Assembly: GCF_024700885.2 (NCBI RefSeq)
Contig: NZ_CP117016.1
Length of the DNA stretch: 64,000 bases
Reading direction: 5' to 3' (one strand)
DNA from: Escherichia coli
Lineage (GTDB): Bacteria > Pseudomonadota > Gammaproteobacteria > Enterobacterales > Enterobacteriaceae
Part shown: positions 8,962 to 61,041 of the stretch, one piece after another
Position numbering within the stretch: position 1 is the stretch's first letter
Layout of the letters: every line of letters starts with the position of its first letter
Notes under the pieces: generated by a model
What the model saw: the letters and a program-made list of their open reading frames with translations, nothing else
What the model was told of the DNA's origin: nothing
Database searches by the model: none
Program-made: the position numbers and the translations under genes

Positions 8962-8965
8962 AAAA

Positions 8966-9033
8966 AGGCGCTATGAAATATAGCGCCCAGTTTCATTAAC
9001 CCGATGGTTCAGACTATCGGGTTTTCTTTTTTA
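8966..9033. terminator. Bidirectional intrinsic terminator region between convergent ybhJ and ybhC
   Basis: Two GC hairpins (GGCGCTAT..ATAGCGCC and CCCGATGG..CTATCGGG) flanked by A/T runs. Confidence 0.5.
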
Positions 9034-10314
9034 CTTCTTCGCCTCTGCAACCACTTTGCTACCCACGCCGCGGTTATTGTATTCCCACATGCGGTTGTAG
9101 TTAGTGTCATTCAGATTGCGTTGTATTTCGTCGCTATCGTCAACGCTGCCGGTGTTACCTGCGAATGGACGATTGGAAATCACCGCATCGGCCCACGGTT
9201 TCGCCGTGTTAAAACCTTCGTTGATGGCGCTATCACGGATCACCACCTGACCGTTGGTATTGGCATCAACATCCAGCGAGCGGCCCAGTTGCGCCACGCC
9301 ATCACCGGAAGCATTGAAACGGCTGTTTACGGCGAGGAAACCGTAATAGATGTTAGACAGCGTAGCCGGTGCAAACACATACGCTTCTTGCTGAGTACGT
9401 GAGTTCACCACGCGGAATTCGGTATTATCGAACACCACTGCGCCGCGACCAGAAACGATATCCACATCCCCTTCAATATAGCTGTTGGTCACCAGAGTAC
9501 GCGGCTGACGGTTGGTTTCCAGACGGTTTTGCACACCACTGTTGGTGACAAAGAAGGTATTCTGACGACCGAGAATGTTGACGTTATTGATCTGCACTTT
9601 GTCGCCATCAGTACGCAGTGCCACCGCCGGATGGTTACCCGCATCTACGCTATCGCCCAGCGTGTTTTCGATGGTCAGGTTTTGCAGTTGCAGGCCATTG
9701 TTTTGTGACCAGAAGACCGCAGAGCAGAGAACGCCGATACTGTCGCTGCGTTTGCTCTGGCAGCTATCGTACATATACCACGCTGGTTTACCTGGCATAT
9801 ATTTGCCGCGCGGGTTGACGTCATGACGCCAGTCGGCAGGGCTCATGCCCCCATCAAGGGAAAGCCCAATCTTCACATCAATCGGTTTTTCACCTGTACC
9901 GTACAGAGTAATTCCACCCGGAGCGGCAGGGACATATACCGTTCCCTGATACTCACCAGGCATCACGGCAATATACTGGCGCTTGTTGGTGCGCTTGATA
10001 ATTGCCGCATCTACCGCCGCCTGAATCGTGGTATGCGTTACACCTTGAGTACCCGCCGGGCCGACAACAAAGTCAGGTTGCGCAGGCAGGGTAATCGGGG
10101 AAGGATTCCACGCTGCCGCACCTGGTGTCAGGGATGCAAAATAGTGTTGAGCATCGAAATTCTGCGCTTCTTTTGCCGACAGAATCGGGCGAGAAGAGGT
10201 ACCAGGCGCGGTTTGATCAGAAGGACGTTGATCGGGCGGTGTTGAGCTACAGGCGGTCAGCGTCACGCCAAAAGCCAATGCCAGCGCCAGACGGGAAACT
10301 GAAAATGTGTTCAC
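9031..10314 (-). CDS. ybhC: Pectinesterase-like outer-membrane lipoprotein
   Basis: 427-aa minus ORF with signal peptide plus lipobox (LTACSS) and a pectin-methylesterase-like beta-helix. Confidence 0.85.
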   Translation of the reverse strand: MNTFSVSRLALALAFGVTLTACSSTPPDQRPSDQTAPGTSSRPILSAKEAQNFDAQHYFASLTPGAAAWNPSPITLPAQPDFVVGPAGTQGVTHTTIQAAVDAAIIKRTNKRQYIAVMPGEYQGTVYVPAAPGGITLYGTGEKPIDVKIGLSLDGGMSPADWRHDVNPRGKYMPGKPAWYMYDSCQSKRSDSIGVLCSAVFWSQNNGLQLQNLTIENTLGDSVDAGNHPAVALRTDGDKVQINNVNILGRQNTFFVTNSGVQNRLETNRQPRTLVTNSYIEGDVDIVSGRGAVVFDNTEFRVVNSRTQQEAYVFAPATLSNIYYGFLAVNSRFNASGDGVAQLGRSLDVDANTNGQVVIRDSAINEGFNTAKPWADAVISNRPFAGNTGSVDDSDEIQRNLNDTNYNRMWEYNNRGVGSKVVAEAKK

Positions 10315-10360
10315 AGGTTGCTCCGGGCTATGAAATAGAAAAATGAATCCGTTGAAGCCT

Positions 10361-10375
10361 GCTTTTTTATACTAA
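10361..10375. other. attL: attL core (GCTTTTTTATACTAA), followed by the lambda-like P' arm
   Basis: Core is followed by GTTGGCATTATAAAAAAGCATTGCTTATCAATTTGTTGCAACGAACAGGTCACTATCAGTCAAAATAAAATCATTATTTG, lambda attP P'-arm sequence. Confidence 0.9.
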
Positions 10376-10448
10376 GTTGGCATTATAAAAAAGCATTGCT
10401 TATCAATTTGTTGCAACGAACAGGTCACTATCAGTCAAAATAAAATCA

Positions 10449-11519
10449 TTATTTGATTTCAATTTTGTCCCACTCCCTGCCTCTGTCATCACGATACTGT
10501 GATGCCATGGTGTCCGACTTATGCCCGAGAAGATGTTGAGCAAACTTATCGCTTATCTGCTTCTCATAGAGTCTTGCAGACAAACTGCGCAACTCGTGAA
10601 AGGTTGGCGGATCCCCTTCGAAGGAAAGACCTGATGCTTTTCGTGCGCGCATAAAATACCTTGATACTGTGCCGGATGAAAGCGGTTCACGACGAGTAGA
10701 TGCAATTATGGTTTCTCCGCCAAGAATCTCTTTGCATTTACCAAGTGTTTCCTTCATTGATATCCCGAGAGCATCAACATGCAATGTTGTAGGGATGGCA
10801 ATTTTTACGCCTGTTTTGCTTTGCTCGACATAAAGATATCCATCTACGATATCAGACCACTTCATTTCGCATAAATCACCAACTCGCTGCCCGGTAACAA
10901 CAGCCAGTTCCATTGCAAGTCTGAGCCAACATGGTGATGATTCTGCTGCTTGATAAATTTTCAGGTATTCGTCAGCCGTAAGTCTTGATCTCCTTACCTC
11001 TGATTTTGCTGCGCGAGTGGCAGCGACCGGGTTTGTTGTTATATGGCCTTCAGCTATTGCCTCTCGGAATGCATCGCTCAGTGTTGATCTGATTAACTTG
11101 GCTGACGCCGCCTTGCCCTCGTCTATGTATCCATTGAGCATTGCCGCAATTTCTTTTGTGGTGATGTCTTCAAGTGAAACATCAGGCAGACCCCTCCTTA
11201 TTGCTTTAATTTTGCTCATGTAATTTATGAGTGTCTTCTGCTTGATTCCTCTGCTGGCGAGGATTTTTTCGTAGCGATCAAGCCATGAATGTAACGTAAC
11301 AGAATTATCACTGTTGATTCTCGCTGTCAGAGGCTTGTGTTTGTGTCCTGAAAATAACTCAATATTGGCCTGTATTGCTTCAGTAATTGCTATCCTCCTG
11401 TCTCTGCCTAATCCGAACTCTTTACCCGTCCTTGGGTCCCTGTAGCAGTAATATCCATTGTTTCTTATATAAAGGTTAGGGGGTAAATCCCGGCGCTCAT
11501 GACTTCGCCTTCTTCCCAT
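10449..11519 (-). CDS. int: Lambda-type integrase (tyrosine recombinase)
   Basis: 356-aa ORF MGRRRSHERRDLPPNLYIRNNGYYCYRDPRTGKEF..., recognised as lambda Int; adjacent to attL. Confidence 0.95.
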   Translation of the reverse strand: MGRRRSHERRDLPPNLYIRNNGYYCYRDPRTGKEFGLGRDRRIAITEAIQANIELFSGHKHKPLTARINSDNSVTLHSWLDRYEKILASRGIKQKTLINYMSKIKAIRRGLPDVSLEDITTKEIAAMLNGYIDEGKAASAKLIRSTLSDAFREAIAEGHITTNPVAATRAAKSEVRRSRLTADEYLKIYQAAESSPCWLRLAMELAVVTGQRVGDLCEMKWSDIVDGYLYVEQSKTGVKIAIPTTLHVDALGISMKETLGKCKEILGGETIIASTRREPLSSGTVSRYFMRARKASGLSFEGDPPTFHELRSLSARLYEKQISDKFAQHLLGHKSDTMASQYRDDRGREWDKIEIK

Positions 11520-11715
11520 TTCTGATCCTCTTCAAAAGGCTACCTGTTACTGGTCGATTTAAGTCAACCTTTACCGCTGATTCGTGGAACAGATACTCTC
11601 TTCCATCCTTAACCGGAGGAGGGAATATCCTGCATTCGCGCACCCATCGACGAACTGTTTCAAGGCTTCTTGGGCGTCGCTGGCGTGCGTTCCACTCCTG
11701 AAGTGTCAAGTACAT
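11497..11715 (-). CDS. xis: Excisionase
   Basis: 72-aa ORF MYLTLQEWNARQRRPRSLETVRRWVRECRIFPPP..., lambda Xis; overlaps the int start as in lambda. Confidence 0.9.
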   Translation of the reverse strand: MYLTLQEWNARQRRPRSLETVRRWVRECRIFPPPVKDGREYLFHESAVKVDLNRPVTGSLLKRIRNGKKAKS

Positions 11716-11754
11716 CGCAAAGTCTCCGCAATTACACGCAAGAAAAAGCCGCCA

Positions 11755-11922
11755 TCAGGCGGATTGGTGTTCTTTCAGTTCTTCAATTCGAATATTGGTT
11801 ACGTCTGCATGCGCTATCTGCGCCCATATCATCCAGTGGTTATAGCAGTCGTTGATGTCCTCTGCTTCGATAACCCTGTCGAATGGCTCTCCATTCCATT
11901 CACCTGTGACTCGGAAGTGCAT
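11755..11922 (-). CDS. Small hypothetical protein (~55 aa), not in ORF track
   Basis: Hand translation of the minus strand from ATG at 11922: MHFRVTGEWNGEPFDRVIEAEDINDCYNHWMIWAQIAHADVTNIRIEELKEHQSA; sits where lambda has a small orf after xis. Confidence 0.35.
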   Translation of the reverse strand: MHFRVTGEWNGEPFDRVIEAEDINDCYNHWMIWAQIAHADVTNIRIEELKEHQSA

Positions 11923-12040
11923 TTATCATCTCCATAAAACAAAACTCGCCGTAGCGAGTTCAGATAAAAGAAATCCCCGCGAGTTCGAGGATTGTTATTC
12001 ATTGCCGATATTCACCTTTATCGCGAACACCTTTACCGGT

Positions 12041-12283
12041 TTATCTCCTTTGCATAGCACGTAATTTTTTCAGATGGTTCTCCTGTTCTGTTTCAGCCAG
12101 GATCTGGTGATATTCTCTGTGATCAATGTGTTCGAATAAATTATTGAATTTTCTGATGCACACTCTTCCAGGATAGCCATCCATCCTCTTGAAGAATACT
12201 GAGTGATCAGTACTACGAATGATTTTTACTGGATAGCCAGCGCTATCGGTGTATATCTGACCACGTTGAATCAGAGAGAACAT
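12041..12283 (-). CDS. Hypothetical early-left protein (80 aa)
   Basis: ORF in the leftward early operon; no recognised domain. Confidence 0.5.
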   Translation of the reverse strand: MFSLIQRGQIYTDSAGYPVKIIRSTDHSVFFKRMDGYPGRVCIRKFNNLFEHIDHREYHQILAETEQENHLKKLRAMQRR

Positions 12284-12349
12284 TCGTTTATCCCCAGATA
12301 AAAATATAGCAATACCAATTACATAAAATACTTCAGGCCAAGCATCATT

Positions 12350-13006
12350 TCACCCCTGGGGCGGTTCTGGTAGCGGCATCCAGTGGGTTACCTCCATGCG
12401 GCACCCATCATCCGACGTAAACCACGAACGATCGTCCGCACTGAACCAGCCAATCCGGATATAACCCCACACATCGAAGAAAAGTACGTCGTGATTATTA
12501 TCCGGCATTCGATCACTACAGCTTATCCAACCATCAGGAGTTACCGGAGAGTTGCCACCGGGAATATTTTCCGGAATATTTTGTTGTGCGTTTTGTGGTT
12601 GTTCGGATTTACCCTGAAGCATGGCGGCGCGGCAGGCGTTCCAGCCAGCTGTTCGCCCAAGCGCGTAAACTTCAGATGGCTCAAGATAATCAATGTCATG
12701 CCCATCCTCATCGTCGTTCTCAGGTAATGCAGCAGGTACTACCGGTACTGGCGGAGCGGCGTAGACTTCAATAATCCCATTATCAATAGGCCATTCCCCA
12801 TCCTTGATGTAGTCACTTGTGCCGTCAACTTGCTGTTCTGCAATGTGGAATGCGCCAATAGGCTCTGCTTCCAGCGATGCCAGTGCAATACGCAGGGCAG
12901 CCAGGATATTCCCCTGGTAATCATCAAGCCCGAAAGGAAGCTCATCACGAATGCTTTCATAATCGTTGATAGCCTGCTGCAGCCATTCTCTTGTGATAGT
13001 GCTCAT
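12350..13006 (-). CDS. Early-left accessory protein with C-terminal DUF551-like domain
   Basis: 218-aa ORF; C-terminus WISCSDRMPD...THWMPLPEPP is typical of prophage DUF551 proteins; stop overlaps the next gene start. Confidence 0.6.
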   Translation of the reverse strand: MSTITREWLQQAINDYESIRDELPFGLDDYQGNILAALRIALASLEAEPIGAFHIAEQQVDGTSDYIKDGEWPIDNGIIEVYAAPPVPVVPAALPENDDEDGHDIDYLEPSEVYALGRTAGWNACRAAMLQGKSEQPQNAQQNIPENIPGGNSPVTPDGWISCSDRMPDNNHDVLFFDVWGYIRIGWFSADDRSWFTSDDGCRMEVTHWMPLPEPPQG

Positions 13007-13671
13007 GATGCCTCTCCTTTACATGCTTCGGTGACGTTTATTCCAGCGTTGTGCAGTGCCTCAAGAACCTGATGCTGCCTGTAAACCATTTCAGTGTGGT
13101 AAGGCTCGTCAAAATCGACGCGATGCAACATGCTATAGCATTGCGGAAGCACAACCTCCCGCAACTCCAGCTCAGCAATGCGCTTCTCTGCGGCTTCCAG
13201 CTTCTCGCGCATATCGTCAACGTACTCGACCAGAGATCCGCCAGCAGGAATTTCGCACTCCTCGACCAGTTGGAAGTAGATATCAGCTGCGGCCCGTGTG
13301 TTGCTATGCCTAGCGTCGCCCATCTCACCTTCACGAAGAGCACCGCGTTCGGCGGTAAGATTGGCTATTTTGCTGTCTTTGCCTTCAAGCTCAACGCGCA
13401 GCTTCCCTACCGTTAGCGCAATATCCTCGTTCTCCTGGTCACGGCGTTTGATGTATTGCTGGTTTCTTTCCCGTTCATCCAGTAGTGCCAGCACGGTTTC
13501 TGGTCCGGCCAGAAATTTGAAGGCGTTGAGCGCATCAATATCCACACCGTAATCTTTAAGTTCCTGTTCACTTAACAAATCATCATCAGCTGGCAACATT
13601 AACAGGCGTTCCATTGCTGGAATTGCACGTTTCGCCGCCTCACGCAGTGCCTGATAGTCAATCTTGCTCAC
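13003..13671 (-). CDS. Ead/Ea22-like hypothetical protein, paralog A
   Basis: 222-aa ORF with N-terminal MSKIDYQALREAA motif shared with the adjacent gene; overlapping start/stop. Confidence 0.6.
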   Translation of the reverse strand: MSKIDYQALREAAKRAIPAMERLLMLPADDDLLSEQELKDYGVDIDALNAFKFLAGPETVLALLDERERNQQYIKRRDQENEDIALTVGKLRVELEGKDSKIANLTAERGALREGEMGDARHSNTRAAADIYFQLVEECEIPAGGSLVEYVDDMREKLEAAEKRIAELELREVVLPQCYSMLHRVDFDEPYHTEMVYRQHQVLEALHNAGINVTEACKGEAS

Positions 13672-14264
13672 TGGTTGCCTCCTTTTCGAAGCTGGGCGGC
13701 GATATCTTCGAGAACGCCATCAGAGAATGAGCGGTCAAAATCGCCTTCCGGCGCATTAGCCATAAACTCAGTAGAGGTAAGAATCATCCGGGCAATATCC
13801 GCGGCGTTCTTCGCAGTATCATCAATAAAACCAGCTTCCCAGGCAGCCAGCATTCTGTTCGCCACAAAATAAGCGCCTTCCTTGCGTGCTTCAGTCTTCA
13901 CTTCAGCTAGAAAAGCATCGGTAGCTGGAGTTTCGCTGTGGTGCAGGGCATCGTTGATAATCATTGCAGCAACTCCGGCCTGCCCTGCATCCGTGACCGA
14001 CACATGCTCAAGAGTTACGGCCATTGCGTGTTTCAGCCCGGCGTTCTCTGCCACCAGCGCCGCGAGATTAGTCTCAAGCTCTGCAATACGGCACATAGCA
14101 TCAATATTTGTGTCTTCCAGCCGCTTAATTTCATCCAGTAGAGCCAGTGCCACCGATGGCGTGAACGCCATACGAAACGCCACAAAATTTTGATGCATAG
14201 GTTCTGTTTCTACTGCAACTGCCGCATCTCGCAGTGCCTGATAGTCAATTGTCATTCTCGCCAT
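13668..14264 (-). CDS. Ead/Ea22-like hypothetical protein, paralog B
   Basis: 198-aa ORF with N-terminal [12 protein letters not shown] motif (compare paralog A). Confidence 0.6.
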   Translation of the reverse strand: MARMTIDYQALRDAAVAVETEPMHQNFVAFRMAFTPSVALALLDEIKRLEDTNIDAMCRIAELETNLAALVAENAGLKHAMAVTLEHVSVTDAGQAGVAAMIINDALHHSETPATDAFLAEVKTEARKEGAYFVANRMLAAWEAGFIDDTAKNAADIARMILTSTEFMANAPEGDFDRSFSDGVLEDIAAQLRKGGNQ

Positions 14265-14896
14265 CCTTCACAGTTGTAATCACGACAGCCTTCAAAATCA
14301 TATGGGCTGTACTGCCAGGTAATTTTTCCGCAATGCGGACAATTCCAACGCACCTTCCCGCTTCGCGACTTCTTTCTTCTGTTCTGCTTTTTCAACCAGT
14401 CAGGCATGACCAAACCTGCGCCCTGAACCATTGTTCTGCGGTTAAAGTTATTGATATTGAACGTCCGGCGCTTTGCTGAATCAGCAATGGAAAATGGCAA
14501 CCAAACTATTCCTGGTTCGTTTTTGTTGGCGACGCTAAAGATGGTCGCTTTACTGAAGTCATCTGTTGGCAATCCACCGTGTTGAAGCCAGTAAACATCG
14601 TTGCCGTTCCAGCTACCTTTTTTGTAGGCCACATACGCAGTGCAATCTGACTCAATCAGGCTTTCTGTAGGGATGTACTGGCAATCAACGTGCCACACTG
14701 CCATTGCATCCACGCTATCCGCGCAAACAGGCTGATCGATATCTCGCCCACAATTCCAGGCTTTTTGGGCTTCTTCCAGCGTGTAAACATGAGCGCGATC
14801 GATATCAGAACTGTAACCATTGCCGTTATGGCAATGGAATGAAGCGTTATTGCCCACAGTTTCACGCGAGCACATCATGTAAAAACGGTTAGTCAC
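14252..14896 (-). CDS. Hypothetical Cys-rich early protein
   Basis: Track ORF 14252..14917; C-terminal CPHCG...CRDYNCEGW Cys cluster; start moved to a GTG at 14896 that is preceded by AGGAGG. Confidence 0.5.
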
Positions 14897-15076
14897 TGGC
14901 TGCCTCCTTTGCGCCACATCGCATTCAGATATTTGTTTTCATTCACTGATGGAAAAGAATTTCTCTTAAGTAATTCCTCTCTCGATGGCATTGGCTTTAC
15001 GCGTTGGCGAATAATCATTTCTGCCGGAAGAATGCCGGGATTGTATGCAAGTCCTCTCATGGTAAATTACTCTTTG

Positions 15077-15391
15077 TTAATTTATTTGTATGCCTGCTCT
15101 TTCTTCATCGAGTTTTTTTAGCTTGTATCGCATAGCTCTTACTGAATAAATTGAGCGGCAGGTTGCAATTGCTATTTCTTCTGCGGAGAACTTACCGAAA
15201 AGTGATACTTCGGCTCTTGTCCATCGTCTTCCACGAAGTCGGCTAACAATGTCAGCGCCAATCCTTGTTGCTTTCGCCATTACTGCTTTTTCAGTCCTTT
15301 CCAGTTTTTCAGCGATAACTTCAACTGGCATTGTCGCCGCCACTTCGCGCAAGAAATCGACTTCCCATTTCTCCCATGGAGTCTTTTTCAT
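15077..15391 (-). CDS. Hypothetical protein with two internal Myb/SANT-like repeats
   Basis: 104-aa ORF with internal duplication (WEKWEVDFLREVAATMPVEVIAEKL / WTRAEVSLFGKFSAEEIAIATCRS). Confidence 0.55.
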   Translation of the reverse strand: MKKTPWEKWEVDFLREVAATMPVEVIAEKLERTEKAVMAKATRIGADIVSRLRGRRWTRAEVSLFGKFSAEEIAIATCRSIYSVRAMRYKLKKLDEERAGIQIN

Positions 15392-15402
15392 AGGCGATAC
15401 CG

Positions 15403-15891
15403 TTATTTGATAAGAAGTGAAGGTTTCCCAACTTTGAGTTGAGCACCGGGGATATTTATTCCTGCTTTTAGTTGGTGTTTGATTGCCAGTTTGTCGGCTT
15501 TAATTGTCGTTTCAAACTCAACGTATTCAGGAGGAAGGGTGCTTGAGTCGATGATTTCTACAGTTTCTGACGGTTTGCGGATTGTTACCTGGTGAATACC
15601 TGCTCGAATCTTTTTCTTGCCAACCATTTCAAGCGATGACGCTATATACGCCATAATGCTGTCAATCTTATTTTGAATTACTGCGGCTCGCTCATTTAGT
15701 GACTTTGCCTCGTCCTTGAGGCGTTCAGCATAACCAGATTCATTTTTAATAATGGCAAGAAGTTGCTCTATTTTATCGGTAAATTCTCCTTCCATGCCTT
15801 CTATTGTGTCAGCAATCATCTCTGGCTCTAAATCTGAATCCATCAATTTTGCGTATTCATTGGCTATTTCATATAGTTTGCTCACTGGCAA
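15403..15891 (-). CDS. Gp157-like phage protein
   Basis: 162-aa coiled-coil-rich ORF immediately downstream of RecT; resembles Siphovirus Gp157 family. Confidence 0.55.
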   Translation of the reverse strand: MPVSKLYEIANEYAKLMDSDLEPEMIADTIEGMEGEFTDKIEQLLAIIKNESGYAERLKDEAKSLNERAAVIQNKIDSIMAYIASSLEMVGKKKIRAGIHQVTIRKPSETVEIIDSSTLPPEYVEFETTIKADKLAIKHQLKAGINIPGAQLKVGKPSLLIK

Positions 15892-16771
15892 CCTCCAGTT
15901 TCGCTTTGCATTCTATGTAAATGGCTTGTACGTTCTGCTGCAATTTCATTCCAGATGTCAGGCGATATGCTTCTGCAAAATATCGCTTCAAATCATCCAT
16001 GTTTTCTGCCTGAGCCATTTCATCACAAAGAAGTTGTGCTTTTTCCATAATTTCCTGCTGGCGTTTCCGTTCATCTTCGCGGATATATTCCTCTGATTTG
16101 TGCGGCATAACTGGTTCAGTCCACACACCTTCTTCTTCGTTTAGTACGTGAATAGCACTATCAAGACGTGATGCCTTAGGCCAATACTTGCTTGCACGCT
16201 TTACGACCGTCTTTCGCGCCATCTCTTCCCAGAATGTTTTCCACGGTCCATTCTTTGCCTTGCTCGTTGCTTCCACAGCTTTAATTTCTGCCAGACTCAT
16301 TTCTTCAGTCAGGTAGTCACCATCTGCTGTTTTAACCGTGCAATAACCACCAACAATAGAGCCTCGCTCACCAAATGCGTTGTATTTGTGGGTTGGTGCT
16401 GAATCAAGACCGTTTGATTCATAGGTGTCGTTTGAGTACACCAGTTTGCATTGCCCCCACTTAATTGATCCTGTCGACTGTGCAAGGTGAAGTAATCCCA
16501 TGTAACTGATATCAAGGCACACCATGCCGTCGCGAGGAACCAGATAAGCCAGTTTGCTGGCCGGGTTTAAGGTGATGCCGATCGCCGCAACGTTGATGAT
16601 AGCGTTCTGTGCGCTGGTCGGATTTGCCAGTGCCGTTTTAGCCAGGTAATCATTTTTCTGGAAATACTGAATTGCAAACTGGCTTTCCTTAGCCCATGTC
16701 ACCGTCTGTTCAGTCAATGCTCCGCAGAATAACTGCTCCTGCTGTTTAACGAATTCAACGATATTGCTCAT
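15869..16771 (-). CDS. recT: RecT-family single-strand annealing recombinase
   Basis: 300-aa ORF with RecT-like core (GYCTVKTADGDY...EEMARKTVVKRASKYWP); occupies the lambda bet position. Confidence 0.8.
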   Translation of the reverse strand: MSNIVEFVKQQEQLFCGALTEQTVTWAKESQFAIQYFQKNDYLAKTALANPTSAQNAIINVAAIGITLNPASKLAYLVPRDGMVCLDISYMGLLHLAQSTGSIKWGQCKLVYSNDTYESNGLDSAPTHKYNAFGERGSIVGGYCTVKTADGDYLTEEMSLAEIKAVEATSKAKNGPWKTFWEEMARKTVVKRASKYWPKASRLDSAIHVLNEEEGVWTEPVMPHKSEEYIREDERKRQQEIMEKAQLLCDEMAQAENMDDLKRYFAEAYRLTSGMKLQQNVQAIYIECKAKLEVASEQTI

Positions 16772-17079
16772 GCTGCTTCTCCATAAATGTGTCTGCGTTT
16801 GAATATTGCGAAGGCATATTCAGCCTTAACTCTTTCGGTTATTGCATCCCAGAACCATTCAGCGGCTTTTTCCTGATAGTTACAGTCATCATCTTCCAGC
16901 CAGTCGATAGCGTCCTTAGTGTGTTCATCTGGTTTATATGAGCGAAGCATTTCGCTTATTGGGTCGCAACGTTTGCAGAGGCGATCAACTTCACTGTTGA
17001 TTCGTTCGTAATCTTCATCAGTAAAACTTGCGATTATTTGCGATATTTCACGCTTATCATTCAGAGTCAGAATCATCAT
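16768..17079 (-). CDS. Hypothetical early protein (103 aa)
   Basis: ORF with overlapping stop/start to recT. Confidence 0.5.
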   Translation of the reverse strand: MMILTLNDKREISQIIASFTDEDYERINSEVDRLCKRCDPISEMLRSYKPDEHTKDAIDWLEDDDCNYQEKAAEWFWDAITERVKAEYAFAIFKRRHIYGEAA

Positions 17080-17160
17080 CTTTCTCCTGTTCTTTGTGCT
17101 GATTGAGCATTTTGTTCATCTGACGAATGAATTCTTCGTCTGACCAGTTATCTGTAAAAC

Positions 17161-17313
17161 TCATTTCCTGCGATACCACGGAAGGTTGATAGCTGATTTC
17201 ATCTCTTTATTTGCTTCAAGCCACATTTTGGAATCACCAATAAATCTGGCTATTACTGCTTTGTTTTGTGCCGCACGAAGCATCTGGTGATTGATGGCTA
17301 TTTCATTGCGCAT
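17161..17313 (-). CDS. Kil-like small protein (50 aa), not in ORF track
   Basis: Hand translation MRNEIAINHQMLRAAQNKAVIARFIGDSKMWLEANKEMKSAINLPWYRRK; FIGD-containing small protein adjacent to the cIII-like gene, as kil is in lambda. Confidence 0.4.
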   Translation of the reverse strand: MRNEIAINHQMLRAAQNKAVIARFIGDSKMWLEANKEMKSAINLPWYRRK

Positions 17314-17432
17314 AACGCCTCCAGTTGTTTCTTTGCTGCTCTGATTAATTGTTTAACTCGGCGTGATAATTCAGATTCGTGCGGGTAGAAAGCGGACATG
17401 ACGCCGCTACCCGCGAGCTGAAAGTGCATCAT
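17298..17432 (-). CDS. cIII-like protease inhibitor (short)
   Basis: Internal start of ORF 17298..17537: MMHFQLAGSGVMSAFYPHESELSRRVKQLIRAAKKQLEALCAMK, pattern-similar to lambda CIII; preceded by GGAG. Confidence 0.45.
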   Translation of the reverse strand: MMHFQLAGSGVMSAFYPHESELSRRVKQLIRAAKKQLEALCAMK

Positions 17433-17496
17433 GGGTAACTCCTTATATTTGATTGCATAACGAAAACGCCTCGAGTGAAGCGTTATTGGTATGCAT

Positions 17497-17520
17497 ATAA
17501 AAAGGCCCTCACACTGGAGG
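17497..17520 (-). terminator. Putative leftward intrinsic terminator (tL-like)
   Basis: Hairpin GCCCTC-ACACTG-GAGGGC followed on the minus strand by a U-run. Confidence 0.35.
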
Positions 17521-17605
17521 GCAAAGAAGAGTTCCAATAATCAGAACAAGTCGGCTCCTGTTTAGTTACGAGCGACATTGCTCACATAGCAGACTCGTAA
17601 ATCTG

Positions 17606-17767
17606 CTATAGGCGCTTATTCGCATCGCATGACAACATCAAATTTTTCGAGATTACTTTGTCGCAACAATCCTTCTTCTACGCGGTCAGCTTTTCTATAA
17701 TTATCAAATTCGAAATGTTTAATTACTTCTTTTGTTTCTCGCTCTATAACTTCAACAATGTATTTCT
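17606..17767 (-). CDS. Small hypothetical protein (53 aa), not in ORF track
   Basis: Hand translation from ATG at 17767: MMNKKYIVEVIERETKEVIKHFEFDNYRKADRVEEGLLRQSNLEKFDVVMRCE; fills an otherwise unexplained gap; AT-rich. Confidence 0.3.
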
Positions 17768-17773
17768 TATTCA

Positions 17774-18070
17774 TCATTCTTCCCCAAGAGCTTTTCTGAT
17801 TGCTGCAAGACCTTTATTAACAGCTCCATACCATTCTGGATATGTTGTCGTTGTTCTATTTTTGGTTTGCTTAAGTAATAACTGAAGTGCTTCGAGAAGG
17901 TCAGGTGCTGCCGCTATTAGATTGGCATCTTCAATGCATTGAACTTCCTCACAGATTGCAATATACGAACGCCAGCCTGCGCCATTTTCAAGTGAGTCTG
18001 CCTGGATGATTTTAATCTCATCGCCATCCATCATTATTTCCCACTTACCTTCAGTACCTTTAAATTCCAT
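17774..18070 (-). CDS. Hypothetical early protein (98 aa)
   Basis: ORF between N and the cIII-like gene. Confidence 0.5.
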   Translation of the reverse strand: MEFKGTEGKWEIMMDGDEIKIIQADSLENGAGWRSYIAICEEVQCIEDANLIAAAPDLLEALQLLLKQTKNRTTTTYPEWYGAVNKGLAAIRKALGEE

Positions 18071-18109
18071 GTTAGCCTCTGTTGTTTATGCCAAAAATGA
18101 AGGCCACCA

Positions 18110-18361
18110 TCAGGCAGCCTTGTTGTAAATGTTGCAGGTATCAAGTAAGTAATTAGATGGAGCGCCATAAATTATGAATTCATCGTTTGTCGGGTCCATC
18201 TCCATCTCTTGGCCTATTGCCATTCTTGCGTCAGTGTCATCAGCGGCGAAACATAAAACAGCCCACGCACCCATTGTTTTAAAAAGAACTGCAATTGGCT
18301 GTGGTTTTACTGAATTTGCGTTAGCGCGAAAATCACAAATCGCACTTTCATGAAATTCCAT
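18110..18361 (-). CDS. Hypothetical early protein (83 aa), Ral position
   Basis: ORF immediately downstream of N in the leftward operon. Confidence 0.5.
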   Translation of the reverse strand: MEFHESAICDFRANANSVKPQPIAVLFKTMGAWAVLCFAADDTDARMAIGQEMEMDPTNDEFIIYGAPSNYLLDTCNIYNKAA

Positions 18362-18369
18362 ATCTCACC

Positions 18370-18696
18370 TCAAATAAGTGGTTTGCTGCCTAATTTCATT
18401 TTCTGGCGACCAACACAAGTCACGCCCATTTCACTGCGTGGCTTGCTGTACCATGTGCGCTGATTCTTGCGCTCAATACGTTGCAGGTTGCTTTCAATCT
18501 GTTCGTGGTATTCAGCCAGCGCCGTAAGGTCTATCGGATTCAGTGCGCTTTCTACTCGTGATTTCGGTTTGCGATTCAGCGAGAGAATAGGGCGGCTAAC
18601 TGGTTTTGCGCTTACCCCAACCAACAGGGGATTTGCTGCTTTCCATTGAGCCTGTTTCTCTGCGCGACGTTCGCGGCGGCGTGTTTGTGCATCCAT
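18370..18696 (-). CDS. N: Antitermination protein N
   Basis: Internal start of track ORF: MDAQTRRRERRAEKQAQWKAANPLLVGVSAKPV..., the arginine-rich motif of lambda/434 N. Confidence 0.9.
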   Translation of the reverse strand: MDAQTRRRERRAEKQAQWKAANPLLVGVSAKPVSRPILSLNRKPKSRVESALNPIDLTALAEYHEQIESNLQRIERKNQRTWYSKPRSEMGVTCVGRQKMKLGSKPLI

Positions 18697-18858
18697 CTGG
18701 ATTCTCCTGTCAGTTAGCTTTGGTGGTGTGGTAGGTGGGAGACCCATTTCGACCTGCTTCGGCCGACTTCAATTCGGCAATAGTTCCGCAGGCCTCGCCG
18801 CTTTACGTGCGACATATTCCCATCCATGAACCCTTCACCACACCCCAAAGCCTTCTGC

Positions 18859-18889
18859 TTTGAATGCTGCCCTTCTTCAGGGCTAAATT
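18859..18889 (-). promoter_or_regulatory. nutL: nutL (boxB hairpin GCCCTGAAGAAGGGC on the transcribed strand, plus boxA-like element)
   Basis: Plus strand shows GCCCTTCTTCAGGGC at 18859..18873, upstream of N in the leftward transcript. Confidence 0.6.
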
Positions 18890-18944
18890 TTTAAGAGCCT
18901 CACCTTCAATGGTGGTTAGTGCGTCCTGCTGATGGCTTAAAATT

Positions 18945-19012
18945 ACAAGAAAGATTGTATGTTGTAAACAAGAAATATTGTAAAAATGGGCGTGAAAAAC
19001 AAACTCCATTGT
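18945..19012. promoter_or_regulatory. OL operator cluster / pL region (three 434-type ACAA-N6-TTGT sites)
   Basis: ACAAGAAAGATTGT (18945..18958), ACAAGAAATATTGT (18968..18981), ACAAACTCCATTGT (18999..19012). Confidence 0.6.
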
Positions 19013-19062
19013 TTTTAAACGGAAAATAGTTTGTTTTTTGGTTGTCGAAATTGAGGTGAGGA

Positions 19063-20415
<1,353 letters not shown>

Positions 20416-20424
20416 GACATTCCC

Positions 20425-20456
20425 GCTCTTACACATCCCAGCCCTGAAAAAGGGCA
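20425..20456 (+). promoter_or_regulatory. nutR: nutR (boxA CGCTCTTA, boxB GCCCTGAAAAAGGGC)
   Basis: boxA at 20425..20432 and boxB hairpin at 20442..20456 downstream of cro. Confidence 0.7.
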
Positions 20457-20534
20457 TCAAATTAAACCACACCTATGGTGTATGCATTTATTTGCATACA
20501 TTCAATCAATTGTTATCTAAGGAAATACTTACAT

Positions 20535-20813
20535 ATGCAACTTACAAGTACTCGCAAGAAAGCGAATGCAATTACAAGCAACATCCTGAATCGAATTGCT
20601 GTACGTGGTCAGCGAAAGGTTGCCGACGCGTTAGGGGTTAATGAATCGCAAATTTCGCGATGGAAAGACAGCTTCATCCCCAAAATGGGAATGCTTCTGG
20701 CTGTTCTTGAATGGGGTGTTGAAGACGAGGAGTTGGCGGAACTGGCTAAGAAAGTAGCCAGAATGCTGACAAAAGAAAAAGCCCCGAAGAACGGCGAATT
20801 CTTCGAGGCCTAA
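20535..20813 (+). CDS. cII: cII-like transcriptional activator
   Basis: Internal start MQLTSTRKKANAITSNILNRIAVRGQRKVADALGVNESQISRWKDSFIPKMGMLLAVLEWGV, similar to lambda CII (SQISRWK...LLAVLEWGV). Confidence 0.8.
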   Translation: MQLTSTRKKANAITSNILNRIAVRGQRKVADALGVNESQISRWKDSFIPKMGMLLAVLEWGVEDEELAELAKKVARMLTKEKAPKNGEFFEA

Positions 20814-20847
20814 TGTAGAAAGACTGGATCAATCCACGGGAGTAATT

Positions 20848-21009
20848 ATGACAAAACGTCGTAAGAAATACCAGGAAAAAGAAGAGATTCGACACCCTGA
20901 TTCACCTGAGGGATTAGTGGTAGCCGCAGCAAATAACAGGGCGTTCGCAGAGCGCCTTGTTGGTGTTTACAGACTAGCCAAAGCAGGAGTGAAACATGGG
21001 CGTCGTTAA
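20848..21009 (+). CDS. Small basic hypothetical protein (53 aa), not in ORF track
   Basis: ATG at 20848 preceded by GGGAG; MTKRRKKYQEKEEIRHPDSPEGLVVAAANNRAFAERLVGVYRLAKAGVKHGRR; overlaps start of the O-like gene. Confidence 0.3.
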   Translation: MTKRRKKYQEKEEIRHPDSPEGLVVAAANNRAFAERLVGVYRLAKAGVKHGRR

Positions 21010-21886
21010 GTTAGCTGATTACAGGCATAACCCTGTACAACATCAGGAGGCATCCAGTATGGGGTATGTCTCTATACACCGCCAGTTTATGGACAGCAGG
21101 CTCTATAAGGACTCTCAGGCAGTACATCTTTGGCTTCACTTAATCCTCAAGGCTAATCACGAATCTACTGTCGTCAATACGGTTATCGGGCCGATAACTG
21201 TTGATCGCGGTCAGATGATAACTGGACGCCCGTCGCTGGTCAGAGAAACATTCATCCCCGACAACAAAGTTAGGAGCTTATTGCGGACTTTTGAGTCGAA
21301 AGGGATGCTTAATATTTGCTCGATGGGGAAGAAATTTAGCCTGTTTACAATCGTTAAATATGACGATTTTCAGGCAAAAAATTGTCCAACGGTTGTCCAA
21401 CGGTTGTCCAACGCAAACACCAGTAATGGCGCGGCTCTCAGCGGAGATTGTCCAACGGTTGTCCAACGGTTGTCCATAAACAATAATATAAATAATATCT
21501 CTAATACTGACGTATTAGAGAGTACCGCAGCAGACAAAAAGTCTGACAAGAAAAAACCTTCCGTCAGCTGTCAGGATGTTGTCGATGCTTACCACGAAAT
21601 CCTTCCTGAAGCGCCAAGAATCCGCGCACTGAATGACAAGCGTAAAAACCAGATCCGAACGTTCTGGCGCAAAGCCGGAGTGATAACCCGACAGCTTGAC
21701 GGGCATGGGTTCACGATGCAGGACTGGAGAAATTATTTGAGCTACGTAGGCGAAAATTGCCGATGGATGTTCGAAGAACGCCCAAACCATCAACGCGGAA
21801 CCGTCTGGCACAAAAAGGGATTTGATTTCCTGCTTAACGACAATACCTACCTGAAAGTTCGTGAGGGTGAACATGATGACCGATAA
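20996..21886 (+). CDS. Replication initiator (lambda O-like) with internal origin
   Basis: 296-aa ORF preceding the DnaB-like helicase; contains iteron array and AT-rich tract within the coding sequence, as for ori-lambda in O. Start codon uncertain. Confidence 0.65.
   Translation: MGVVKLADYRHNPVQHQEASSMGYVSIHRQFMDSRLYKDSQAVHLWLHLILKANHESTVVNTVIGPITVDRGQMITGRPSLVRETFIPDNKVRSLLRTFESKGMLNICSMGKKFSLFTIVKYDDFQAKNCPTVVQRLSNANTSNGAALSGDCPTVVQRLSINNNINNISNTDVLESTAADKKSDKKKPSVSCQDVVDAYHEILPEAPRIRALNDKRKNQIRTFWRKAGVITRQLDGHGFTMQDWRNYLSYVGENCRWMFEERPNHQRGTVWHKKGFDFLLNDNTYLKVREGEHDDR
21382..21479. repeat. ori: Origin iterons: six direct repeats of TTGTCCAACGG in two triplets, followed by AT-rich tract
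   Basis: Repeats at 21382, 21393, 21404 and 21448, 21459, 21470; AT-rich segment 21477..21520. Confidence 0.8.
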
Positions 21887-23312
21887 TTTTTATGCGCCGC
21901 CCCATAGCATCGAGGCAGAGCAGGCGGTGATTGGTGGATTGCTTCTGGATGATGACAGCAGTGAGCGCGTCCAGAAAGTTCTGGCGATGCTGAAGCCCGA
22001 TTCATTTTACAGCCGACCACACAAAATCCTTTTCGAAGAAATAACCAGAATGCACCGGGAGCAAAAGCCAGTAGATGGCCTGACGCTTTTCGATGAACTG
22101 GAGCGTAAATCGTTAACGGTGTCTGTTGGCGGTTTTGCTTATATCGCTGAGATCGCAAAGAACACGCCAAGCGCAGCAAACATCGTTGCCTATGCAATGC
22201 AGGTTCGTGAAACCGCAATGGAACGCTACGCCATCAACCGCATGACTGAAGCGACGGAATTGCTCTATTCCCGCAACGGAATGACTGCAACGCAGAAGTA
22301 CGAAGCTATTCAGGCGATTTTCACGCAACTGACAGACCATGCAAAAACCGGATCGCGTCGCGGCCTTCGCTCATTTGGTGAGGTCATGGAAGACTGGGTT
22401 AGCGACCTTGAGAAGCGATCTGACCCGTCAGGCGAACAACGAGGAATGAGCACAGGGATCCCATCTCTGGACAGGATGCTGTCACCGAAAGGTCTGGTGA
22501 AAGGCTCTCTGTTCGTCATTGGCGCTCGCCCTAAGATGGGGAAAACGACGCTATACAGCCAGATGGCAATCAACTGCGCAGTGCATGAGAAAAAGCCAGC
22601 TCTGATGTTCAGCCTTGAAATGCCAGGTGACCAGATACTGGAAAAACTGGTAGGGCAGAAGTCTGGTGTTAACCCGAATATTTTTTACCTTCCGGCGACA
22701 AATGACGCTGATGACGGCTATCAGGGTGATTACGATGGTGACTTCAACAGGGCGATCGAAACAGCAAATCGCTTGAGTGAAATCGACCTGCTTTACATCG
22801 ACGACACGCCGGGATTATCTCTGGCTCAAATCGTCAGCGAAAGCCGTCGAATCAAGCGAGAAAAAGGATGTGTTGGCATGATTCTGGTCGATTACCTGAC
22901 ACTAATGACCGCTGAAAAGGCCGATCGCAACGACCTTGCTTACGGCATGATCACCAAAGGACTGAAGAACCTTGCCAAAGAGCTTGATTGCGTTGTTGTG
23001 CTTCTGACACAGCTTAACCGCGCACTGGAAAGCCGAACCAATAAACGCCCATTACCAAGTGACTCACGAGATACAGGGCAGATTGAACAGGATTGCGATT
23101 ATTGGGTGGGGATCCATCGTGAAGGTGCTTTTGATGACAGCGTTCCTCCTGGTGAAACCGAACTAATCCTTCGTCTCAATCGTCATGGCAATACCGGCAC
23201 GGTGTATTGCATTCAGGTAAATGGCGCTATTTATGACACAGACCAACAGTCTGCTGAAATGCGCCGACGTGAACGCGAGGAACCGCAGTCCAAGAAGAAA
23301 GGAGGATTCTGA
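21873..23312 (+). CDS. DnaB-like replicative helicase (P22 gene 12-like)
   Basis: N-terminal DnaB domain (SIEAEQAVIGGLLLD) and Walker A GARPKMGKT; start taken at ATG 21873. Confidence 0.85.
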   Translation: MMTDNFYAPPHSIEAEQAVIGGLLLDDDSSERVQKVLAMLKPDSFYSRPHKILFEEITRMHREQKPVDGLTLFDELERKSLTVSVGGFAYIAEIAKNTPSAANIVAYAMQVRETAMERYAINRMTEATELLYSRNGMTATQKYEAIQAIFTQLTDHAKTGSRRGLRSFGEVMEDWVSDLEKRSDPSGEQRGMSTGIPSLDRMLSPKGLVKGSLFVIGARPKMGKTTLYSQMAINCAVHEKKPALMFSLEMPGDQILEKLVGQKSGVNPNIFYLPATNDADDGYQGDYDGDFNRAIETANRLSEIDLLYIDDTPGLSLAQIVSESRRIKREKGCVGMILVDYLTLMTAEKADRNDLAYGMITKGLKNLAKELDCVVVLLTQLNRALESRTNKRPLPSDSRDTGQIEQDCDYWVGIHREGAFDDSVPPGETELILRLNRHGNTGTVYCIQVNGAIYDTDQQSAEMRRREREEPQSKKKGGF

Positions 23313-23387
23313 TGACCATCTACATCACTGAGCTAATAACAGGCCTGCTGGTAATCGCAGGCCTTTTTATTTGGGGGAGAGGGAGTC

Positions 23388-23828
23388 ATGAAAAAACTAA
23401 CCTTTGAAATTCGATCTCCAGCACATCAGCAAAACGCTATTCACGCAGTACAGCAAATTCTTCCAGACCCAACCAAACCAATCGTAGTAACCATTCAGGA
23501 ACGCAACCGCAGCTTAGACCAAAACCGAAAGCTTTGGGCCTGCTTAGGTGACGTCTCTCGTCAGGTTGAATGGCATGGTCGCTGGCTGGATGCAGAAAGC
23601 TGGAAGTGTGTGTTTACCGCAGCATTAAAGCAGCAGGATGTTGTTCCTAACCTTGCCGGGAATGGCTTTGTGGTAATAGGCCAGTCAACCAGCAGGATGC
23701 GTGTAAGCGAATTTGCGGAGCTATTAGAGCTTATACAGGCATTCGGTACAGAGCGTGGCGTTAAGTGGTCAGACGAAGCGCGACTGGCTCTCGAATGGAA
23801 AGCGCGATGGGGAGACAGGGCGGCATGA
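23388..23828 (+). CDS. ninB: NinB (Orf family recombination mediator)
   Basis: 146-aa [62 protein letters not shown]..., recognised as lambda NinB. Confidence 0.9.
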
Positions 23829-24001
23829 GACGACAGCGACGAAGTATCACCGACATAATCTGCGAAAACTGCAAATACCTTCCAACGAAACGCTCCAGAA
23901 ATAAACGCAAGCCAATCCCAAAAGAATCTGACGTAAAAACCTTCAATTACACAGCTCACCTGTGGGATATCCGGTGGCTAAGAAATCGTGCGAGGAAATG
24001 A
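23825..24001 (+). CDS. ninD: NinD-like small zinc-finger protein
   Basis: Internal start [34 protein letters not shown]...; lambda nin-region small protein. Confidence 0.7.
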
Positions 24002-24381
24002 CAATGGATTATTCACAGTTAAGTGATTTTGAAATTAACAAGCGAGTGGCAATCGCAAATGGACTTTTGGTTCAGGGCATTGATGATAGTAAAGCCACTG
24101 GAATGACTAGCAAATATCACGAACTCCGGCCGCACACTGTTTGGGTGAGTGATGGTAAAAACCCATGGGTGCAATATGCACCAACTCTTTGCTGGGAGGA
24201 TGCTGGACCTGTCATCTTGAAGAATCGCATCAGTCTTGTTTGGGATTGCGCTGAAGATGGCAGTTCTGAATGGTGGAATTCTGTTGATCAGTTCGATTCT
24301 TGCCGAGTTCAGTACCAGTCTAATCCCCTCCGCGCCGCCATGATTGTATTTCTCATGATGCAGGACGCCAATAATGCTTAG
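23998..24381 (+). CDS. nin-region hypothetical protein
   Basis: ORF starting [26 protein letters not shown]...; no recognised domain. Confidence 0.5.
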
Positions 24382-24559
24382 CCCATCCCAATCCCTTCAA
24401 TACCAGAAAGAAAGCGTCGAGCGGGCTTTAACGTGCGCTAACTGCGGTCAGAAGCTGCATGTGCTGGAAGTTCACGTGTGTGAGCGTTGTATATATGAAT
24501 GCTTAAATATGGTGGAACATAATGAGAAATATAAGCAACATAGACGAATTAAGAAATAA
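24374..24559 (+). CDS. ninF: NinF-like protein with 3' end displaced by an insertion
   Basis: N-terminal 35 aa ([37 protein letters not shown]) match lambda NinF as recalled; the remainder is unrelated, and the expected NinF C-terminus (CAELMSDPNSSMYEEEDDE) is encoded at 25030..25086 in another frame. Confidence 0.6.
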   Translation: MLSPSQSLQYQKESVERALTCANCGQKLHVLEVHVCERCIYECLNMVEHNEKYKQHRRIKK

Positions 24560-25031
24560 ATTATCATATGATGATGTTTTAGGTGTGCTTAGATGGAAAG
24601 TGTCTCCTTCTAATAATGTTAAGGTTGGCAGTGTTGCTGGTTACATTAGGAGTGATGGTTATAGGATGTTAACTATCGATGGTGTAATTACTTATGCTCA
24701 CCACGTTATATGGATGATAAATAATGGTGAGATTCCATTAGGGTATAAAATTGATCATATAAATGGAGTAAGGTCAGATAATAGGCTATCTAATCTTCGA
24801 TTGGTTACACACCAACAGAATGCACAGAACCAAAAGAGAAAAATAACCAATTCGTCAGGAGTGACTGGAGTATATTTCAATAAAGAGAGATGTAAGTGGA
24901 TTGCGAATATATGCGTAGATGGGCGCACCAAATATCTTGGAATATTTGCAAGCATCATTGACGCTATTGCAGAAAGGAAGAGGGCAGAAAAAGAACTGGG
25001 TTTTCATGAAAACCATGGCAGACCATAACTG
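24487..25031 (+). mobile_element. Inserted free-standing HNH endonuclease cassette inside ninF (approximate boundaries)
   Basis: AT-rich ~0.55-kb segment with its own RBS and ORF, flanked by the two halves of ninF. Confidence 0.5.
24522..25028 (+). CDS. HNH homing-type endonuclease
   Basis: 168-aa ORF with HNH motif (YKIDHINGVRSDNRLSNLRLVTHQQN) and AP2-like segment (GVTGVYFNKERCKWIANI). Confidence 0.8.
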   Translation: MRNISNIDELRNKLSYDDVLGVLRWKVSPSNNVKVGSVAGYIRSDGYRMLTIDGVITYAHHVIWMINNGEIPLGYKIDHINGVRSDNRLSNLRLVTHQQNAQNQKRKITNSSGVTGVYFNKERCKWIANICVDGRTKYLGIFASIIDAIAERKRAEKELGFHENHGRP

Positions 25032-25081
25032 CGCAGAACTGATGAGCGATCCGAATAGCTCAATGTACGAGGAAGAAGACG

Positions 25082-25351
25082 ATGAGTGATTTCTCTGAGC
25101 TTATTTCCTTCAAAAAAGACAGAGAAGAAATGCGGACTGAATCTGTCTATTACGTTCAACACCGGAATAAACGCTCTGTGCTTGATCAGGAGCTGGTTAT
25201 TACCGGAGACCTGGCATTCAGAACATATAAGGCCAGCATGGAAATGAAGGATTTCCCTAAATGTGGTTCTGAAAGAGAAGCCGCGTTAAAGCTGGCAGAG
25301 TGGATGCAGAGAATGGCTGCTGCAATTGAGAATTACTGGAGCGAACCATAA
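25082..25351 (+). CDS. nin-region hypothetical protein (89 aa)
   Basis: ORF with ATGA overlap to the ninF remnant stop. Confidence 0.5.
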   Translation: MSDFSELISFKKDREEMRTESVYYVQHRNKRSVLDQELVITGDLAFRTYKASMEMKDFPKCGSEREAALKLAEWMQRMAAAIENYWSEP

Positions 25352-25641
25352 TGGCTAACCTACGCAAAGAAGCACGCGGCAGAGAATGCCAGGTACGTAT
25401 TTACGGCGTATGCAATGGCAATCCTGAAACTACAGTTCTGGCACATTACCGGATGGCTGGAATTTGCGGAACGGGAATGAAACCTGACGACCTGATCGGT
25501 GCATGGGCTTGTAGCGCGTGTCACGATGAAATCGACCGACGTACCCATAACCTCGACAACAAAGACGCCAGACTTTACCACCTCGAAGGCGTGATCAGGA
25601 CGCAGGCGATACTGCTGAGGGAGGGGAAGATTAAGCCATGA
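25351..25641 (+). CDS. nin-region Cys-rich hypothetical protein (96 aa)
   Basis: ORF with Cys/His cluster (CQVRIYGVC...CSACHDEID). Confidence 0.55.
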   Translation: MANLRKEARGRECQVRIYGVCNGNPETTVLAHYRMAGICGTGMKPDDLIGAWACSACHDEIDRRTHNLDNKDARLYHLEGVIRTQAILLREGKIKP

Positions 25642-26000
25642 ACGAATATCAGTTTGTGCTTCCATACCCGCCGTCGGTGAATACCTACTGGCGAAGACGG
25701 GGAAGCCAATACTACATCAGCGATAAAGGCCAGAAATACCGAAAAGATGTACAGCAAATAATCCGCCAACTCAAGTTAGACATTTTCACCAAATCACGAC
25801 TCCGCATCAAAGTCATCGCAGACGTTCCAGACTCCCGCCGCCGCGACCTCGATAACATCCTGAAAGGTTTACTCGATTCCCTTATCCACGCCGGATTTGC
25901 GGAAGACGACGAGCAATTCGATGACATTCGCGTAATTCGTGGTGTGAAAGTACCAGGCGGACGGCTTGGAATAAAAATCACCGAACTGGAGAACGCATGA
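25638..26000 (+). CDS. rusA: RusA-type Holliday-junction resolvase
   Basis: 120-aa ORF with LPYPPSVNTYWRR and DLDNILKGLLDSL motifs typical of RusA. Confidence 0.85.
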   Translation: MNEYQFVLPYPPSVNTYWRRRGSQYYISDKGQKYRKDVQQIIRQLKLDIFTKSRLRIKVIADVPDSRRRDLDNILKGLLDSLIHAGFAEDDEQFDDIRVIRGVKVPGGRLGIKITELENA

Positions 26001-26805: not shown

Positions 26806-26847
26806 CGGCATGATTGCCACGGATGGCAACATCTTTACGGCATGATA

Positions 26848-61040: not shown

Positions 61041-61041
61041 C

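Follow-up and report, generated by a model that had tools for sequence, protein, structure and literature searches.

Phages HK022, HK97 and H-19B are the closest described carriers of the gene pair reported here, and the source of their cIII and kil genes is Oberto, Weisberg & Gottesman 1989, as cited in PMC1838920. In the HK022 record (GenBank:X16093), a "kil gene product (AA 1-50)" is given at 33..185 and a "cIII gene product (AA 1-44)" at 170..304, with putative ribosome-binding sites (RBSs) 4 nt and 6 nt upstream, respectively, and the same kil/cIII pair is found in HK97 (GenBank:AF069529), together with a putative terminator upstream of cIII. Two classes of CIII, lambda-like and HK022-like, have been distinguished, the HK022-like sequence being identical in HK022, HK97 and H-19B (Kobiler et al. 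2007, PMC1838920). FtsH inhibition and stabilisation of CII are established for lambda CIII (PMC1838920), and lambda Kil is known to block FtsZ ring assembly in a ZipA-dependent manner (PMC3961180).

The window, that is, the whole 64,000-nt stretch of Escherichia coli DNA analyzed here, was found to carry the HK022 form of this pair. A megablast of 17000..17700 against deposited phages gave 370 records; among these were HK022, HK97, H-19B, HK106 and mEp235 (98-99% identity), where the matched segment carries the annotations "Kil" and "CIII"; cIII and kil of the window are already known, being the HK022 genes of the 1989 source paper. The elements of the pair are as follows.

17298..17432, minus strand: cIII gene of the HK022 class, coding for 44 aa before the stop, or for 43 aa with initiation at the second ATG (17429)
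17161..17313, minus strand: kil, 50 aa plus stop
17298..17313, minus strand: cIII/kil overlap of 16 nt, ATGCGCAATGAAATAG, read from the sequence, the ORF list and the HK022 record, which has the same overlap
17439..17444, minus strand: cIII Shine-Dalgarno sequence AAGGAG, 6 nt 5′ of the first ATG, with the putative RBS of X16093 at the equivalent place
17318..17322, minus strand: kil Shine-Dalgarno sequence GGAGG, 4 nt 5′ of the ATG and within cIII codons 37-39, equivalent to the putative RBS of X16093

In the ORF list, Kil, containing FIGD, is the product of the minus-strand ORF 17161..17313 (MRNEIAINHQMLRAAQNKAVIARFIGDSKMWLEANKEMKSAINLPWYRRK), whereas CIII corresponds to the last 44 residues, from ATG 17432, of a 79-aa ORF starting with TTG at 17298..17537 on the same strand (MMHFQLAGSGVMSAFYPHESELSRRVKQLIRAAKKQLEALCAMK), its ESxLxRxxxxL core being formed by E19, S20, L22, R24 and L29. 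Read in the kil frame, the overlap runs from the start codon through codon 5 (M R N E I) and takes in the first nucleotide of codon 6; in the cIII frame, its translation with the two preceding bases added is L C A M K stop, the kil frame being 2 nt out of register relative to that of cIII. The earlier note on this DNA had proposed, without naming a strand, a 50-aa FIGD-containing ORF at 17161..17313 overlapped for 16 nt by a 44-aa ORF with an ESxLxRxxxxL core; these positions were exact, both ORFs lie on the minus strand, and alignment with lambda CIII showed the five core residues to be invariant.

The cIII AAGGAG was invariant across the window, HK022 and HK97 in a DNA alignment, and RNA folding predicted the kil initiation region to be unstructured. 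The Shine-Dalgarno sequences and sequence conservation suggest that translation starts at the cIII and kil ATGs. In addition, translational coupling between cIII and kil is possible, because the kil initiation region sits within the final cIII codons.

Upstream of cIII, two hairpins were located.

17497..17522, minus strand: intrinsic-terminator-like hairpin GCCCTCCAGTGTGAGGGC followed by the T-run CTTTTTAT, detected by a terminator scan and aligning with the "terminator, putative" of HK97
17465..17484, minus strand: second leader hairpin AACGCTTCACTCGAGGCGTT, about 20 nt 5′ of the cIII Shine-Dalgarno sequence

The first hairpin lies upstream of cIII within the 35-codon extension of the 79-aa ORF. 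The second is also present in the cIII leader of lambda itself (AACGCTTCACTCGAGGCGTT), and in relatives it showed a compensatory change of C-G to U-A (AATGC...GCATT) with a different loop; it may be a tL2-type terminator or a processing site. A 186-nt stretch including the terminators folded better than its shuffles (z=-4.41), and the fold of the 111-nt cIII initiation region did not differ significantly from shuffles (z=-0.87). Alternative structures of the lambda kind at the cIII start were therefore dropped as a candidate, the value of -4.41 deriving from the terminator hairpins and the initiation region alone giving -0.87. A long-range pairing of GGAACUCUU, located 5′ of the terminator, with the cIII Shine-Dalgarno sequence was likewise rejected, since it was absent in relatives having other upstream sequence. 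An Rfam scan of the whole window gave no family match near cIII or kil.

In both leader hairpins, the upstream terminator and the two RBSs, the window was the same as HK022 and HK97, and its DNA was co-linear with theirs over a segment that starts 5′ of the terminator and extends about 50 nt beyond the kil stop. Homology with these phages breaks near 17115, and the downstream genes differ: the window has a 35-aa ORF, a PHROG 3486 protein, RecT and a Gp157-like protein, whereas gp42.1, Erf and Abc2 are found on the HK022/HK97 side. The phage type also differs, as the prophage of the window is P22-like and not HK97- or HK022-like. It is integrated beside ybhC, with int at 10449..11519, P22-type capsid, portal and tailspike genes, and an arc/antirepressor region. 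On the minus strand, the leftward gene order is cI-like repressor, unknown gene, N, three small unknown genes, the two hairpins, cIII, kil, the 35-aa ORF, PHROG 3486 protein, RecT and Gp157-like protein; a cro-like gene lies on the plus strand alongside cII. The neighboring features used below are listed here.

19464..20096, minus strand: cI-like repressor
18370..18696, minus strand: N antiterminator gene at the head of the leftward early operon (Pfam N36, E=2.7e-25; RefSeq "antitermination protein N")
17057..17164, minus strand: 35-aa ORF MSFTDNWSDEEFIRQMNKMLNQHKEQEKDDDSDSE, whose ATG overlaps the kil stop (ATGA), without RefSeq annotation (PHROG 17766, E=5e-16)
15869..16771, minus strand: RecT
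20535..20813, plus strand: cII (Pfam Phage_CII PF05269, E=1.9e-42; RefSeq "lambda phage CII family protein")

It is highly probable that the pair belongs to the pL (leftward early) operon of an E. coli prophage that is lambdoid and P22-like, and that cIII and kil are present there in the HK022 allelic form.

Several other features of the prophage and its surroundings were noticed. 1) For the gene at 19063..19467 (minus strand), 3′ of the cI-like repressor gene, an in-frame ATG at 19467..19465 overlaps the repressor TGA (ATGA) and gives a signal-peptide-like N-terminus, the RefSeq start is 31 codons later (19374), and the PHROG 2651 profile reaches 18 positions beyond the RefSeq start; this gene probably encodes, in the rex position, a protein that is secreted and that lysogens express along with the repressor, the RefSeq start being placed too far downstream. 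2) At 24374..25089 (minus strand), RefSeq has an HNH endonuclease (24522..25028) flanked by an intact ninF (24374..24559) on one side and a ninF fragment (24982..25089) on the other, and this HNH gene in the nin region looks like an insertion of the homing-endonuclease type. 3) The region 44831..46922 is similar to the immI of P22: besides an antirepressor and two genes of the Arc family, it has a sar antisense RNA at 46856..46922 (Rfam, 83.6 bits), and at 44831..46089 a PIN-domain gene is paired with an unknown gene, a pair that could be toxin-antitoxin or defence cargo. 4) Two prophage tRNA genes (RefSeq tRNA-Asn and tRNA-Thr) lie at 27080..27235 (plus strand) between a Q-like antiterminator gene and a holin gene. 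5) In host DNA beyond the prophage, and unrelated to cIII and kil, a molybdenum cofactor riboswitch (Rfam RF01055, 102.9 bits) was located at 60910..61054 (plus strand).

Kil of the window matched Pfam Lambda_Kil (PF06301) with 67.6 bits (cut-off 27.6; E=6.4e-19) over profile positions 1-31 of 31, and PHROG 2055 over the full length (E=1.9e-35). It was identical to Kil of HK022 and HK97 at 49 of 50 residues (98%), the sole change being A37E, and shared 44% identity with lambda Kil, with FIGD invariant. The AF2 model, a prediction built on a 4-sequence alignment, has a helix at residues 2-25, a turn at G26-D27 and a helix at 28-42, with a mean pLDDT of 83.5 and values of 91-96 over residues 11-40. 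In lambda Kil, the core consists of helix 4-18, G19-D20 and helix 21-38, and loss of either helix or of the turn abolishes division inhibition (PMC11762379); the predicted helix/G26-D27/helix arrangement of the window protein matches this essential core. A C-terminal RSK/RSSK motif, which is not part of the Pfam model, has been reported in nearly all lambda Kil homologues; the window Kil ends in ...LPWYRRK, a basic tail without RSK/RSSK. We found no report in the literature on the activity of HK022-type Kil; a block of FtsZ by the window protein would be expected from its homology with lambda Kil.

For CIII, the match to the Pfam cIII protein family (PF08134) reached 104.7 bits (cut-off 25; E=2e-30) over profile positions 1-37 of 37, and that to PHROG 550 had E=2.6e-13. 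In protein alignments, it was 100% identical to CIII of HK022 and HK97 and 32% identical to lambda CIII, with E19, S20, L22, R24 and L29 invariant. The lambda-class family Lambda_CIII (PF02061), which lambda CIII itself matches with 105.4 bits, gave only 12.4 bits with the window protein (E=0.17), below its cut-off of 25.7. By these profile matches, the window CIII belongs to the HK022 class (PF08134), sister to the lambda class PF02061. Its helical hydrophobic moment was 0.53 for residues 17-40 and 0.60 for 19-40, values equalled by 0.8% and 0.5% of shuffles, respectively, and the same measure gave 0.67 (residues 14-37) and 0.74 for lambda CIII; these values are consistent with an amphipathic helix equivalent to lambda residues 14-37. 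Reportedly, Kornitzer in 1991 compared the activities of HK022 and lambda CIII, and a 24-residue active domain of CIII is said to have been described by Kornitzer et al. in that year.

The amphipathic helix of lambda CIII, residues 14-37, is necessary and sufficient for activity, and alanine at S17, R24, L26, R27 or R32 results in a cIII- phenotype (PMC1838920). Aligned with these five essential positions are S20, K27, L29, I30 and K35 of the window protein, of which two are identical and two conservative, I30 being not conserved, so that the core appears similar, not identical, to that of lambda. Activity of HK022-class CIII on FtsH would be expected from Kobiler et al. (2007) and from homology. 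The resemblance that the earlier note had seen between the 50-aa ORF and lambda Kil in size and position was borne out by the matches to PF06301 and PHROG 2055, the 44% identity including FIGD and the overlap with the 3′ end of cIII, and its cIII-like 44-aa ORF can now be assigned to the HK022 class by the PF08134 match, with the ES-L-R----L core kept in the lambda alignment.

Relatives were taken from 80 viral contigs (IMG/VR) having this kil, of which 51 loci with HK022-class cIII, plus the window, were used for codon-position counts; they were compared segment by segment, anchored on the kil start, there being mosaic junctions and indels upstream of cIII. Eight Kil protein variants were found among the 80 contigs. 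In the 51 loci plus the window, polymorphic sites of kil at codon positions 1, 2 and 3 numbered 3, 2 and 10 (44 third positions, 17164..17295), which on the sequences compared is the pattern of a gene translated in this frame. The third-position polymorphism and the family matches support the minus-strand frames over the plus-strand ORFs at 17186..17290 and 17266..17388. Upstream of cIII, conservation among the 51 IMG/VR loci starts only about 64 nt before the ATG, and some of these relatives have wholly different upstream sequence with another terminator hairpin (GCCGCCTGAGCGCGGCTTT).

At 27 of 79 IMG/VR loci, the same kil was linked to a cIII whose core is of the lambda class (...ESLLERITRKLRDGWKR; MIYAIAGGARMGAFQLNESLLERITRKLRDGWKR) and which ends in VEVLLCAMK and the stop. 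The breakpoint in these loci is essentially at the kil ATG (corresponding to 17298..17330 of the window), so that the last five CIII residues are dictated by the kil allele that follows; as the LCAMK end and the stop are also found in relatives whose cIII core is different, this stretch travels with kil. The "chimeric" cIII with lambda core and LCAMK tail was considered as a new form and rejected, being annotated as CIII in mEp213, mEp043, HK633 and others. On the other side of kil, the first 16 residues of the 35-aa ORF were kept in 80 of 80 loci and followed by unrelated continuations (35, 52, 56 and 83 aa), which places a mosaic junction inside this ORF. It was also noticed that HK97 gp42.1 begins like the 35-aa ORF.

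The exact start of cIII allows for an alternative, namely initiation at the second ATG (17429), giving a protein of 43 instead of 44 aa. In alignments, the second M is the counterpart of lambda CIII M1 and of the only M in the chimeric cIII with lambda core, the Pfam cIII profile begins at residue 2 of the 44-aa CIII, and the 9 nt between AAGGAG and the second ATG would still be a workable spacing. However, the first ATG has the 6-nt spacing and was chosen by all depositors; both ATGs were invariant among the HK022-class loci examined. We consider the second start possible but somewhat doubtful and take the 44-aa CIII from ATG 17432 as the more likely product.

The cIII gene hardly varied, codon positions 1, 2 and 3 having 3, 2 and 1 polymorphic sites, respectively (51 loci plus the window), and in the same set third-position variation was 1 of 39 in cIII (17316..17432) versus 10 of 44 in kil (Fisher p=0.008). 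For the coding sequence of HK022-class cIII, a constraint that acts on the RNA in addition to the protein, e.g. an internal translational control element, might be considered, and a control element inside the lambda cIII coding region has been described (Altuvia & Oppenheim 1986, as cited in PMC1838920). However, the lambda cIII with that reported element has a sequence quite different from the window allele, the predicted fold at the cIII start (z=-0.87) gives such a constraint no support, and, more simply, the low third-position diversity of cIII could stem from recent spread of one allele by recombination. We regard RNA-level constraint as unlikely.

That both ORFs are decaying remnants of a defective prophage, with expression or function lost, seems very improbable. 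Defective prophages are common in E. coli, and A37E is a charge change in Kil. However, the two ORFs are undamaged, as are their Shine-Dalgarno sequences and the leader, and the prophage is complete with regard to int/xis and to immunity, replication, lysis, head and tail genes. In addition, E37, alone or with one further substitution, occurred in 12 of the 80 independent viral contigs and is thus a standing allele.

Least credible, to the point of being practically discarded, is a 79-aa, N-terminally extended CIII starting from TTG 17537; the frame is open in the window and in some close HK022/HK97-type relatives, but no Shine-Dalgarno sequence precedes the TTG, the extension crosses the terminator hairpin annotated in HK97, the Pfam match to the 79-aa protein is restricted to residues 37-73, the extension has in-frame stops, a 1-nt insertion or unrelated sequence in most of 39 upstream haplotypes (51 IMG/VR loci with HK022-class cIII), and ATG 17432 was chosen as the gene start by both GenBank and RefSeq. 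Sequence comparison effectively refutes a coding role for the 35-codon extension and leaves the 79-aa ORF as a chance extension of cIII, not a gene; the earlier note, in holding that the ORF at 17298..17537 over-extends cIII, was right. Its wording that the two genes were "missed or mis-started" holds for the mechanical ORF list only; in the public annotation, both genes are called at these coordinates. A case of the same kind is N, as the mechanical ORF at 18370..18747 (minus strand, 125 aa) has its arginine-rich N36 motif from residue 19 (MDAQTRRRERRAEKQAQW), in agreement with the RefSeq start at 18696, and is over-extended.

For the annotation, the RefSeq entry of E. coli MLI114 (NZ_CP117013.1, 3550400..3600396, reverse complement) was used, which corresponds to window 1..49997 with 0 mismatches. 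There, kil (17161..17313) is named "host cell division inhibitory peptide Kil", and 17298..17432 (44 aa, WP_000972063.1) is a "hypothetical protein". NCBIfam gave no match for Kil or for either CIII class, and cIII is unnamed in RefSeq because NCBIfam has no matching model. In phage RefSeq records and in PHROG 550, CIII is named "CIII anti-termination", which misdescribes a protease inhibitor. The pair is present in about 40% of complete E. coli genomes, as the surrounding 1.4 kb matched 2267 of 5426. The value of these results as a discovery is small, and their practical value lies in the annotation of HK022-class CIII; mechanical ORF lists with a length cut-off miss or over-extend such small genes, both of which, by analogy with lambda, would bear on host physiology, Kil on cell division and CIII on FtsH.

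From lambda biology, we infer the following course of events. Upon repressor loss or infection, transcription from pL would be made termination-resistant by N, as in lambda, and the N-modified transcription would pass both hairpins upstream of cIII (17497..17522, 17465..17484) and so reach cIII and kil. The cIII gene would be translated from its own AAGGAG site, and the 44-aa CIII, presumably through its predicted amphipathic helix (residues ~17-40), would inhibit the membrane protease FtsH competitively and at the same time be one of its substrates, by analogy with lambda (PMC1838920). Inhibition of FtsH would slow the breakdown of CII, encoded at 20535..20813, such that lysogeny would be favoured. 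Meanwhile, kil would be translated from the GGAGG embedded in the final cIII codons, and the 50-aa Kil, with its predicted helix-turn-helix fold, would block FtsZ ring assembly (ZipA-dependent in lambda), with transient filamentation in lytic growth or induction as the expected result.

Compared with the window, lambda has the same gene order in its pL operon, 3′ of N, with cIII (54 aa) at 33299..33463 overlapping kil (47 aa) at 33187..33330. The overlap is 32 nt in lambda, whereas it is 16 nt in the window, and the window CIII is without the 17-residue C-terminal tail of lambda CIII. Conversely, the window Kil has 7 extra N-terminal residues relative to lambda Kil and ends in YRRK instead of RSSKSIH. 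Downstream, lambda kil overlaps gam, whereas in the window a small ORF comes after kil, joined to it through ATGA; the window is without gam, bet and exo of lambda, and a RecT-type module takes their place past the mosaic junction near 17115. Bacillus SpoVM is another peptide that inhibits FtsH, being also a short amphipathic helix that is both an inhibitor of FtsH and degraded by it (PMC1838920), and it differs from CIII in its role, which is in sporulation.
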